A DNA stretch of 41,282 bases from Dehalococcoidia bacterium (GCA_041494685.1 JBGQBE010000027.1:1-41282); one strand, 5' to 3'. Positions 9,813-13,287 are shown, counted from the stretch's first letter. Notes: a model not told the origin generated them from the sequence alone. Numbers and translations: made by a program.

Positions 9813-10277
9813 CTACTCTGCCTTCTTGCGGGTGCGCTTAGGCTTCTCAACAGCAGCGACATCCGTGGCAGCCGCCTTGGCGCGGCTGCGCCGCTTCGGG
9901 GCGGCCTCCGCTTCGGGGGCCGCTGCCTCGGCCGGTGCCGCCTTCGTCAGCTTCGGCTGCTCGCCCGGGGCCAGGATGTCACTCACAACCAGCCGCGTGA
10001 AGAGCTGCCGGTGGCCGTTCTTCTTGCGGGAGCGCGTCTTCGACTTGTACTTGAATACGAGAATCTTCCTTGCGCGGCCCTGCTCGGCGATCGTGCCCAG
10101 CACACGCGCGCCGGCGATCACCGGCGTCCCGACCGTGACGCTCCCGGCGTCATCCAGCAGGAGCACGTCGTTCAGCTCGATCGACTCGCCAGGCTCGCCC
10201 GGCAGCCGCTCGACCTTCAGGGCGTGGCCTTCCTCGACGCGGTACTGCTTGCCTCCGGTGCGGACGACGGCGTACAA
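9813..10277 (-). CDS. rplU: 50S ribosomal protein L21 with an Ala/Lys-rich C-terminal extension
   Basis: MYAVVRTGGKQYRV..GHRQ. TTG start with an AGGAGG SD. Confidence 0.97.
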   Translation of the reverse strand: MYAVVRTGGKQYRVEEGHALKVERLPGEPGESIELNDVLLLDDAGSVTVGTPVIAGARVLGTIAEQGRARKILVFKYKSKTRSRKKNGHRQLFTRLVVSDILAPGEQPKLTKAAPAEAAAPEAEAAPKRRSRAKAAATDVAAVEKPKRTRKKAE

Positions 10278-10328
10278 GGCATCCTCCTGGACAACACAAC
10301 GCCTGCCGAGCGGCAGGCGTCGCGAGTG

Positions 10329-10358
10329 ATTCTATCTGCCGCTCCTGAACTCTGTCAA
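10329..10358 (-). promoter_or_regulatory. Housekeeping sigma-70-type promoter of the rplU operon
   Basis: Minus strand TTGACA-N18-TAGAAT, followed by a 10-bp leader hairpin (10299..10320). Confidence 0.7.
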
Positions 10359-10410
10359 ACCGGGCAGATTCGGGAATCCCGGATTCCCCGGAAATGCCGC
10401 TCGCTGCCCC

Positions 10411-10437
10411 TAAAGCACGCAGGGCGACCGCCGACAA
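10411..10437 (+). promoter_or_regulatory. Putative sigma-28 (FliA/WhiG-type) promoter of the archaellin gene
   Basis: TAAA-N15-GCCGACAA versus the consensus TAAA-N15-GCCGATAA: one mismatch and exact spacing, about 120 nt upstream of the ATG at 10559. Confidence 0.7.
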
Positions 10438-10558
10438 TCCTAGGGGAATCTCCTAGGGTCTCCTAGGCGAATCGCCAATGGTTGGAATCGCGGGAAGTTG
10501 CACCTGGTCCTGGCGGGCCGGCCGGCGCACACGAGCTCCGCAGGTTGGAGGTGGCCGC

Positions 10559-11134
10559 ATGAGGAAGCTACGAGCAGTCCTCAGTCGCGTCCGGGAAGAG
10601 AACGGAATCACGGGTCTCGAGACCGCGATCATCCTGATCGCATTCGTCGTGGTAGCGGCCGTGTTCGCGTTTATCGTGCTGAGCACGGGGCTCTTCAGTT
10701 CGGAGCGAGGCAAGGAAGCGGTCTACGCGGGTCTGGCGAAGACCCGCGGGACGATGGAGTTGTCAAGCAACGTGGTCGCGCTGTCCGACGGGACGAAGAT
10801 CACGTCGCTGGGGTTCGATCTGGCCCTCGCGGCGGGCGGTGACTCCGTCAACCTGGACCCCACGGCGACCGCGAACCGCACCGTCATCAGCTACATCGAC
10901 GCTGGCACCGTCGTCAACGACGTGGCCTACACGACTACGATCGTAAGCGGCAACGCCAACCAACTGCTGGAGCCTGGCGAATTGATCCGCATCAATATCG
11001 ATATGGTGGCCAACGGCCTGACCGTCCCGACGAACACGATGTTCACGCTGGAGATCAAGCCGCCAAGCGGTTCGTTCATGGTGATGCAGCGCACCACGCC
11101 AGCCGCGTACGCGTCGGTGAACATCATCCCGTAG
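10559..11134 (+). CDS. Archaellin (archaeal flagellin, ArlB/FlaB-like) with a class III signal peptide
   Basis: REENG|ITGLETAIILIAFVVVAAVFAFIVLSTG N-terminal helix, then LLEPGE and FTLEIKPPSG motifs typical of archaellins. GGAGGT SD. Confidence 0.88.
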   Translation: MRKLRAVLSRVREENGITGLETAIILIAFVVVAAVFAFIVLSTGLFSSERGKEAVYAGLAKTRGTMELSSNVVALSDGTKITSLGFDLALAAGGDSVNLDPTATANRTVISYIDAGTVVNDVAYTTTIVSGNANQLLEPGELIRINIDMVANGLTVPTNTMFTLEIKPPSGSFMVMQRTTPAAYASVNIIP

Positions 11135-11166
11135 CGCTTCGACCCCCGGAACGGGTCACTGCTCGA

Positions 11167-11196
11167 GGGGCGGTCTCGGTAGCTCGAGACCGCCCC
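11167..11196 (+). terminator. Hairpin downstream of the archaellin gene (putative terminator)
   Basis: GGGGCGGTCTCG-gtagct-CGAGACCGCCCC, a 12-bp stem with a weak U-tract. Confidence 0.55.
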
Positions 11197-11241
11197 GAGT
11201 GCTTCTCGCAGGGACTTCCGGCGACAGGCAGAAGCGAAACC

Positions 11242-11275
11242 ACGAAGGGCTCCCCGGTCACGGGGAGCCCTTCGT
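11242..11275 (-). terminator. ftsH terminator hairpin (possibly bidirectional)
   Basis: ACGAAGGGCTCCCCG-gtca-CGGGGAGCCCTTCGT, a 15-bp stem between convergent genes. Confidence 0.7.
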
Positions 11276-11295
11276 TGACGTGCGAGATCGGACGA

Positions 11296-13287
11296 TCAGC
11301 GTTCGAGGCTGTCCGCGTCGAGCATGGTGTTCGACTGGCTGCCCCAGGCGAGGCCGGGCGGGCCGAGCTTCGGCTGCGGGCCGGAAGTGTCCTCCGCTCC
11401 GCGAACCTCTTCGGTGGCTGCGGGCGGCGCCGGCGGCTCCGGTGCGGGCGGCGGCGCCGCGTCGAGTCCGTCCAACACCCGGCGCAGGTCGTCGCCCTCG
11501 ATGTTTTCCACCTCGAGCAATACCTTCACCAGGCGGTCCAGGCGGTCGCGGTTCTCGACCAGGATGTTGCGCGCAGTCTGGTAGGCGTGATCGACGAGGC
11601 GGCGCACCTCCTCGTCGATCTCCTCGGCCACCTTCTCGCTGTAGTTGCGCTGCTCGCCAATTTCGCGGCCGAGGAACACAAGCTCCTGCTTGTTGCCAAA
11701 CGTGCGGGGACCGAGGCGCTCGCTCATGCCCCATTGCGTCACCATGTTGCGCGCGATGTTCGTGGCGCGCATCAGGTCGTCGCTAGGGCCGGTGGTGGAC
11801 TCGCCGTCGAGGATCAACTCCTCCGCGCAGAGGCCGCCGAGGCTCGTCGCCAGCACGTCCTTGAACTGCGAGCGGGCCATCAGGTGCCGGTCCTCCTCGG
11901 GCAGGAAGCGGGTGAAGCCGCCGGCCATGCCGCGGGAGACGATGCTGATCTTGTAGGGCGGGTCGGCGTTCGGCAGCAGGTGGCCGACGAGCGCGTGCCC
12001 TCCCTCGTGGTAGGCGATGATCTCCTTCTCACGAGGGGTGATCACGCGGCTCTTGCGCTCCGGACCGGCGATGACGCGGTCAACGGCCTCGTTGAACTCG
12101 CTCATGCTGATCTTCTTCTTGTTGCGGCGCGCCGCCAGGATCGCTGCTTCGTTCACCAGGTTCGCCAGATCGGCGCCCGAGAAGCCCGGCGTCTGCTTGG
12201 CCAGCACCCCCAGCTCCACGTCCTTCTCGAACGGCTTGCCCTTGGTGTGGACCTCCAGGATCATCGCCCGGCCCCTGCTGTCCGGTCGGTCCAGAATCAC
12301 CTGGCGGTCGAAGCGGCCCGGGCGCATCAGCGCCGGGTCGAGGATGTCCGGGCGGTTCGTCGCGGCGACCACGATGACGTTGGTGTTCGTGTCGAAGCCG
12401 TCCATCTCCACCAGGATCTGGTTCAGGGTCTGCTCACGCTCATCGTGCGACCCGCCGAGCCCGGCGCCGCGCTGCCGCCCGACGGCATCGATCTCATCGA
12501 CGAAGACGATGCACGGCGCATTGCGCTTGGCCTGGTCGAAGAGGTCGCGCACGCGGCTCGCGCCGACGCCCACGAACATCTCGACGAACTCGGAGCCGCT
12601 GATCGAGAAGAACGGCACACCCGCCTCGCCCGCGACGGCCCGGGACAGCAGCGTCTTTCCGGTACCGGGAGGTCCCACAAGCAGCACGCCGCGCGGAATG
12701 CGCGCGCCGAGCGAGGCGAACTTCTCCGGGTACTTGAGGAACTCGACGACTTCCGCCAGCTCCTCCTTGGCTTCATCGACACCCGCCACGTCCTGGAACG
12801 TGACGGTCGTCTTGTTGCCGGTGAACATGCGTGCGCGGCTCTTGCCGAAGCTCATTGCCTGGCTGTTGGAGCCCTGCGCCTGGCGCATCATGAAGATGAG
12901 GATGGCGCCGAAGACGAGGATGGGCGCGAAGTTGATCAGCAGGCTGATCCAGCTGCCGTACGCCGACGGCGCCTTGTACTTGATATCGACGGCCTGGTCG
13001 CCGCCGCCGCCGATGACGACCTTGTTGTCCTGCAGCACCTTCTCGACATCGGTACTGTTGCCGACGCGCGACGTGTACTTCGTCGCGTCGTTCTTCTTCA
13101 CCACGTTGAGCGTCTGTCCGGAGATCTCGATGCTCTTGAGCTGTCCGTCGCGGCCGGCTGCCACGACGTCGCTGAACGGGAGATTCTTCGTATTGTCGCC
13201 GCTCTTGAAGAACGAGACGACGATCGCGATGACCGCGACCAGGATCAGGAGGTAGATGAAGCTGTTTCGCAGCCAGCGGGAACTCAT
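11296..13287 (-). CDS. ftsH: ATP-dependent zinc metalloprotease FtsH
   Basis: Two TM segments, Walker [35 protein letters not shown]. Confidence 0.98.

Follow-up and report, generated by a model that had tools for sequence, protein, structure and literature searches.

The window, by which we mean the whole stretch of DNA that was analysed, comprises 41,282 nucleotides and corresponds to contig C27 of the genome of an uncultured soil Dehalococcoidia bacterium (MAG, G000; 3,288,913 bases in 87 contigs, 68% G+C, 97.58% complete, 1.32% contamination). It contains a stand-alone archaellin gene, whose reading frame scores 86.9 bits against PF01917 (cut-off 29.5) and which stands by itself, with a divergent rplU-rpmA pair on one side and a convergent ftsH on the other. 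The neighbourhood has the following features:

9813–10277, minus strand: rplU (ribosomal protein L21), the divergent neighbour (PF00829, E = 3.3e-36)
10329–10358, minus strand: sigma-70-type promoter TTGACA-18-TAGAAT for rplU-rpmA (consensus scan, 11/12 matches)
10547–10551, plus strand: Shine-Dalgarno sequence GGAGG, 7 nt before the ATG (read from the sequence)
10559–11134, plus strand: stand-alone archaellin gene, 191 aa (PF01917 Arch_flagellin, E = 2.4e-24, residues 16-177)
11167–11196, plus strand: 12-bp G+C-rich hairpin after the stop codon, a possible terminator (read by eye from the sequence only)

The hairpin behind the archaellin gene was not flagged by the consensus scan because no T run follows it. 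Within 10200-11320, the rplU promoter was the sole sigma-70-type site found (0.2 expected), and its TGTCAA block is kept in syntenic orthologues; on the archaellin strand of the same interval, the consensus scan gave no sigma-70-type promoter. The near-consensus sigma-70 promoter of rplU-rpmA is a useful internal contrast for the archaellin promoter.

Upstream of the archaellin gene, TAAA at 10411-10414 and GCCGACAA at 10430-10437 stand on the plus strand with 15 bases between them. Read one base wider, the site becomes CTAAAGC ... GCCGACAAT, and we assign the following elements:

10410–10416, plus strand: −35 element CTAAAGC with a sigma-28-type TAAAG core (sequence and orthologue profile)
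10430–10438, plus strand: −10 element GCCGACAAT with an extended GC and a CGA core (sequence and orthologue profile)
10439–10467, plus strand: three copies of CCTAGG (at 10439, 10452 and 10462) over the predicted start, a conserved element
10445, plus strand: predicted transcription start (GCCGACAA placed at −15 to −8 as in P. aeruginosa)

An earlier, sequence-only reading of this DNA had described TAAA-N15-GCCGACAA at 10411-10437 as a sigma-28 promoter one mismatch from consensus, in the correct orientation about 120 nt before the archaellin start. Both points are confirmed: seven of the eight −10 positions match, and with the archaellin ATG at 10559 the −10 block ends 121 nt upstream of the start codon. 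The weak point of the site is its C at the sixth base of the −10 block, instead of the consensus T (W in the published form). Compared with that published consensus, TAAAGWWY-N11/12-RYCGAWRN (Yu et al. 2006, as quoted in PMC8762339), the archaellin site matches at 14 of 16 specified positions. The fliC promoter of P. aeruginosa carries TCTAAAG at −36 to −30 and GCCGATAA at −15 to −8 (PMC12784957). The archaellin site resembles it in the −35 block (CTAAAG versus TCTAAAG), and in the −10 block (GCCGACAA versus GCCGATAA), and it has exactly the same 14-nt gap. Placing GCCGACAA at −15 to −8, as in the P. aeruginosa sigma-28 open complex, we infer that transcription starts at 10445 with a leader of 114 nt; this position falls inside the range 10443-10446 predicted earlier.

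Such a site is rare by chance. Allowing up to one mismatch, TAAA-N15-GCCGAYAA has a single match in the window, where 0.03 are expected, and any match appeared in 3 of 100 shuffles. The exact pattern exists once in the whole genome, counting both strands, and this copy is the archaellin site; taken separately, TAAA occurs 888 times and GCCGAYAA 214 times. Scored with a matrix built from 14 orthologous sites, the archaellin site reaches 30.8 bits and is the sole place in the genome at or above 18 bits, a threshold passed by 1, 1 and 2 matches in three shuffled genomes.

The two blocks are strongly conserved among close relatives. Archaellins are present in 51 of 61 related genomes, and the tallies of relatives include one unpublished genome (G021; rows L156 and L187) whose removal alters no conclusion. 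The 15 closest orthologues of the window's archaellin (69-76% identity) all carry both blocks, with identical spacing in 14 and one additional nucleotide in the remaining one. Their common pattern is CTAAAG or a one-base variant, 14 nt (15 in one case), then GCCGA, two variable bases and AT. Across 16 ungapped, anchored sites, the −35 block is CTAAA in 15 and CTCAA in one, and the −10 block is GCCGA in 14, with GACGA and GTCGA once each; CGA itself is found in all 16. The information profile of these sites peaks at the two blocks only, and the spacer sequences vary freely. Free spacer sequence at fixed spacing is typical of a two-block promoter.

In a maximum-likelihood tree of 71 archaellins, from which L146 (116 aa), L149 (a fragment) and the first archaellin on contig C33 of the window's genome were omitted, the motif is found in 15 of the 17 genes of the stand-alone clade (support 100/99), the two remaining genes having partial versions. 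A second, sister clade shows a variant motif in four of five genes. None of the other 49 archaellins on the tree has it, including the cluster paralogues and the archaellins of Caldilineaceae, Anaerolineales and Promineifilaceae. The idea that the motif recurs upstream of Chloroflexota archaellins thus holds for 19 of the 22 genes in these two clades and fails elsewhere on the tree. In agreement, the matrix finds the motif in close relatives only among 70 named loci, all from uncultured Chloroflexota and mostly labelled Dehalococcoidia, and in the window's own genome neither the four cluster archaellins (contigs C33 and C51) nor the arlF, arlG and arlJ genes have such a site. For six motif-bearing archaellin genes, no rplU lies within the ~3.5-kb locus fetched, which indicates that the motif goes with the archaellin gene.

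In the four remaining families of the order, 20 regions upstream of archaellin genes yielded one clear case, one distant weak one and 18 with nothing. The clear case (G040, C155:10724-10750) is a perfect CTAAAG-N14-GCCGATAC located ~80-110 nt upstream of an archaellin that is 53% identical to that of the window; apparently, the same promoter type was recruited there independently. A class-wide scan with TAAAG-N14-GCCGATAC matched in 16 of 201 genomes, including 10 places in 9 genomes outside the order. We regard this as background level, because the reversed control pattern also gave 16 matches.

Directly after the −10 block, the archaellin orthologues continue with TAGGG, 6-8 nt and CCTAGGG, within leaders of 57 to 205 nt. 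In the window this element comprises three of the 75 copies of CCTAGG in the genome. RNAalifold recovered no conserved hairpin in it (3 pairs, −1.31 kcal/mol, zero compensatory changes), which makes a protein-binding site over the start the likelier reading; judging from the sequence, 10439-10467 may be a putative operator or a CsrA-type site. No Rfam family matched in the archaellin loci, where only terminator hairpins were scored, as microRNAs. A similar element, TAGGG(A), 6-8 nt and CC(C)TA(A/G)GGG, follows the −10 block upstream of an ECF sigma gene (L150-L170). At C2:93134-93153, two more CCTAGG copies stand 14 nt from each other at the end of a hydrolase-like reading frame, adjoining an unusually A+T-rich stretch.

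The same class of promoter recurs at other transcription units. The pattern TAAA-N16-CCGAYA has three matches in the genome. Apart from the archaellin site, the best of them is located 78 nt upstream of cpaB, which opens a Tad pilus operon (cpaB, tadZ-like, tadA, tadB/C). In relatives, the cpaB site follows a strict pattern in 20 of 30 loci and a loose one in 29; GCCGATAC is kept across all five families, with TAAAG as −35 block in the window's family and TCAAG elsewhere. Upstream of arlH-arlI, 30 relatives' loci yielded 6 strict and 13 medium matches. All 13 belong to the 20 loci of the window's family, which read CTAAAT or CTACAT, 14 nt and GCCGACA, and the motif is absent from the 10 loci of other families. 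By eye, 19 of the 20 family loci have a −10 block of the type GCCGAxA in the same alignment column. The window's own genome has GTCGATA there, and its arlH site as a whole is degenerate (TACA ... GTCGATAT, 3 mismatches). A palindrome, GGTG-N4-6-CACC, overlaps the −35 block of arlH-arlI in most of the window's family (L217-L236; C19:34480-34500 in G000).

A pattern covering these variants, TA[AC]A-N15-G[CT]CGA[CT]A, has five matches in the genome, four of which are intergenic and correctly oriented: those at cpaB, at arlH, at the window's archaellin and at one unrelated gene. Up to two mismatches, 20 matches are intergenic and oriented, as compared to 10, 2 and 8 for three scrambled motifs, in a scan modelled on the method of PMC8325347; above background at this stringency, only the best sites stand out. 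Three further places were set aside. The two-mismatch site at C19:37285, after arlI, is a false lead that precedes a thiolase gene; that at C24:29628 precedes a small reading frame, cysteine-peptidase-inhibitor-like by translation alone, and is likewise a false lead; and the match at C8:71403 looks like chance.

The csrA gene carries part of the motif. Among 41 genomes of the order, 33 have csrA and a FliA/WhiG gene no more than 4 kb apart (hand count from coordinates; C4:75400-79839 in G000, and relatives L076 and L180-L209), and TGCCGATA(C/T)AT precedes csrA in ~26 of 30 loci (hand count), without a TAAA −35 block.

The genome contains five archaellin genes (PF01917) together with archaellum machinery genes. 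ArlH/FlaH (263.6 bits) and FlaI (636 bits) score above their cut-offs and ArlJ below its own (456.7 versus 570 bits); ArlF- and ArlG-like reading frames are present, as is a single A24 prepilin peptidase on C20. These genes are scattered, with arlF, arlG, arlJ and four archaellins on C33 and C51, arlH-arlI on C19 and the remaining archaellin on C27. C33 and C51 are probably contiguous, since the former breaks off inside an archaellin gene and the latter starts with the 3′ end of one. On C33, the first cluster archaellin and a gene for a REC-GerE response regulator are divergently oriented. The cluster archaellins at C33:34320-34729 and C51:945-1364 (L097, L098) have a conserved leader of ~270 nt with several invariant blocks; it matched nothing in Rfam and, from its sequence, could represent an undescribed regulatory RNA or else a group of factor sites.

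Within this genome at its completeness of 97.58%, neither flagellin (PF00669) nor the FlhA-type export gate FHIPEP (PF00771) was matched, and FliW gave no match either. The sequence-only reading had named flgM and fliA/whiG as genes to look for. FlgM (PF04316) has no match in the genome, and sigma factors of the FliA/WhiG family are encoded twice, at C4:79162-79839 (TIGR02479, 190.8 bits, above the cut-off of 189.6) and at C52:10552-11223 (182.5 bits). Both score far higher for FliA/WhiG than for SigB/F/G. Their nearest solved relatives are WhiG structures (6pfv, E = 1.3e-40, and 6pfj), followed by FliA of E. coli (6pmi, E = 4.5e-33) and of P. aeruginosa; 6pfv is presumably WhiG of R. radiotolerans. 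For P. aeruginosa FliA, the residues contacting the promoter have been reported (PMC12784957), and D66, R97, S224 and Q228 are kept in both sigmas, while Y76 is conserved in one sigma and replaced by F in the other, and R101 is conserved in one and replaced by K in the other. With no match to FHIPEP or flagellin, the FliA/WhiG sigmas must have other targets. The notion of a late-flagellar sigma factor at the archaellin gene consequently stands as to family and not as to function: the flagellar genes sought were not matched, and the factor would be WhiG-like in what it does.

A FliA/WhiG gene is found in 60 of the 61 relatives, including genomes without a detected archaellin, and its phyletic pattern thus says nothing either way. 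Two genes flank the sigma gene on C4; compared with solved structures, they showed no informative relative and no RsiG homologue. In the available part of PMC8325347, this anti-sigma factor is described within Actinobacteria only.

On this evidence we think it fairly probable that 10410-10438 forms a functional sigma-28-type (FliA/WhiG) promoter, through which acquired archaellum genes were recruited into a small regulon. RNA polymerase carrying one of the two FliA/WhiG sigmas would bind CTAAAG at −35 and GCCGACAA at −10 and would start near 10445, giving a monocistronic archaellin mRNA with a leader of ~114 nt. The regulon would consist of this archaellin, arlH-arlI (within the same family), the Tad operon (order-wide) and the gene of a Tad-linked ECF sigma; csrA, beside one of the sigma genes, would belong with its −10 part only. 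Part of a horizontally acquired archaellum would thereby have joined a pre-existing alternative-sigma regulon of type IV filament-superfamily genes.

That one of the FliA/WhiG sigmas reads the site is our inference, and the promoter may have another reader. A BldN-like ECF (group 4) sigma could recognise a real promoter at this site and drive its own gene, the Tad operon, arlH-arlI and the archaellin, its likeness to the sigma-28 consensus being convergence; we hold this to be possible and clearly the less probable assignment. Of 30 relatives' loci, 24 have the gene of this sigma directly upstream of cpaB, and 59 of the 61 relatives encode it. The gene's own upstream region reads CTCAAGC, 14 nt and TGCCGATC in every one of 23 loci, after which comes a TAGGGA ... 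CCCGTAAGGGA element resembling that of the archaellin leader. A motif upstream of a sigma's own gene is the classical sign by which ECF promoters are assigned. For the FliA/WhiG gene, in contrast, the 30 loci with the best family match of each genome (28 of these matches being >60% identical to the C4 gene) showed no convincing motif in the 300 nt upstream, and it is for this difference that we took the ECF sigma as the main rival. The spacing from AAG to CGA (16 nt) also fits ECF promoters. However, ECF promoter cores have AAC at −35 and CGT at −10, unlike the AAG (AAT at arlH) and CGA found here, and in their wider sequence, CTAAAG and GCCGAT(A), the blocks are of the sigma-28 type. Moreover, this assignment would leave two FliA/WhiG sigmas with intact contact residues but without a recognisable target. 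Presence and absence cannot separate the candidates, given that FliA/WhiG, the ECF sigma and archaellin occur in 60, 59 and 51 of 61 relatives, respectively. All the data are compatible with a cascade in which the ECF gene is under a FliA/WhiG factor. The best family for the Tad-linked sigma is BldN (TIGR02952; PDB 6dxo, E = 7.7e-27). Streptomyces BldN is an alternative sigma for surface fibres that drives the chaplin and rodlin genes (PMC4125116). The sigma found here is BldN-like and has the motif at its own gene, but it scores below the family cut-off (148 versus 206 bits) and no adjacent anti-sigma gene was seen. The earlier claim that the archaellin is under a bacterial sigma-28 is therefore upheld by the promoter match, the sigma genes and the conservation, and is qualified by this second candidate reader. 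Of the outcomes that the sequence-only reading had named as refuting it, a genome lacking any sigma-28-family factor and a motif not kept ahead of orthologous genes were both checked, and neither was observed.

Two further explanations do without an alternative sigma at the site. The conserved blocks might be transcription factor sites beside a weak, overlapping promoter of the housekeeping sigma, with GACAAT for instance as its −10. GACAAT, GAACAT and GACCAT indeed keep the A at position 2 and the T at position 6 of a sigma-70 −10, and the CCTAGG element directly downstream looks like a factor site. Against this, the consensus scan that detected the rplU promoter returned nothing on the archaellin strand; a 17-nt spacer makes CTAAAG the −35, which matches TTGACA at just 2 of 6 positions; the invariant GCC that precedes GA serves no purpose in a sigma-70 −10; and the two-block pattern with its fixed spacing is found again at four further transcription units (at csrA, its −10 part). 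We consider this explanation improbable. Still less credible, in our estimate, is that the blocks act outside transcription initiation, as an RNA element of a longer transcript or as a remnant travelling with the gene. The long leader, at 57 to 205 nt in orthologues, would suit an RNA element, but there is neither an Rfam match in the locus nor a conserved fold beside the site, and the divergent spacer, with the rplU promoter facing the other way, makes a transcript from upstream unlikely.

If a FliA/WhiG sigma does read the site, the closest described system is the WhiG regulon of Rubrobacter, with its type IV pilus targets. R. radiotolerans WhiG is a flagellar-clade sigma in a non-flagellate host; its type IV pilus targets are transcribed from TAAA/GCCGATAA promoters, the starts of which have been mapped (PMC8325347). 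Here, unlike in Rubrobacter, the putative targets include an archaeal archaellin and arlH-arlI besides the Tad operon, the host belongs to Chloroflexota and not Actinobacteria, and the start is predicted, not mapped. As at the class III flagellin promoters of FliA/SigD systems, the target is the subunit of a swimming filament, set apart from the machinery genes. In contrast to those systems, archaellin is unrelated to flagellin and only one of five archaellin genes has the site. The hook-completion checkpoint that times FliA cannot apply, as FHIPEP, flagellin, FlgM and FliW all lack a match.

Archaeal promoters consist of a TATA box and a BRE, read by TBP and TFB, and are controlled by regulators such as ArnR or EarA. 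Compared with the archaeal arlB/flaB promoters, orthologous genes are controlled, whereas the blocks here are of the bacterial sigma type and no TATA-like element was seen in 10380-10445.

CsrA controls flagellin mRNA (hag) in B. subtilis. The present case resembles it in that csrA lies near a FliA/WhiG gene and the archaellin leader starts with a conserved G-rich element, often with GGA; on the other hand, FliW was not found and GGA is absent from some orthologues, which makes the parallel a lead only. We mention, as a speculation that we rate as doubtful, that the module of FliA/WhiG sigma and csrA might stem from a lost flagellum, have served the Tad pilus and later have been rewired onto the archaellum, with CsrA and/or a response regulator acting on the TAGGG element of the archaellin and ECF-sigma leaders. 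Bacterial flagellar logic, in which a late sigma is combined with CsrA acting on the filament mRNA, would in that case have been transferred to an archaeal machine. PMC12488501 proposes that the phylum had flagellated ancestors whose flagella disappeared before it gained the archaellum, and the survival of a FliA/WhiG and CsrA module would fit this order of events.

Full-text searches of the literature found no paper tying archaellum genes to a sigma factor. That bacterial archaella function was first demonstrated in 2025 in PMC12488501, whose main text mentions neither 'promoter' nor 'FliA' and whose supplements could hold expression data. The suggestion that the link is undescribed accordingly survives for the archaellum and has to be narrowed by the precedent of WhiG and type IV pili (PMC8325347). 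Archaellin and motor ATPase genes that are switched on, as appears to be the case here, from a flagellin-type promoter would be a wiring not yet described. It bears on how a bacterium transcribes and times an archaeal machine and offers, for one lineage, a testable answer in the form of defined promoters at arlB, arlH-arlI and the Tad operon together with three candidate sigmas. It may also illustrate the regulatory domestication of transferred genes through recruitment into an existing alternative-sigma regulon, and would be a natural example of one sigma family controlling flagellin, type IV pili and, possibly, archaellin.

A 2026 preprint on the chemosensory coupling of the archaellum contains neither 'sigma' nor 'promoter'. 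In the window's genome, the cheW-cheA operon (C2:140646; L268:6620-6650, minus strand) has TCAA-N15-GCCGAACA ~150 nt upstream, and TAAA-N15-GCCGACAA stands upstream of the operon in G002 (L270). This che operon is present in just 6 of 41 relatives, and cheW lies directly behind another gene in three of the five other loci.
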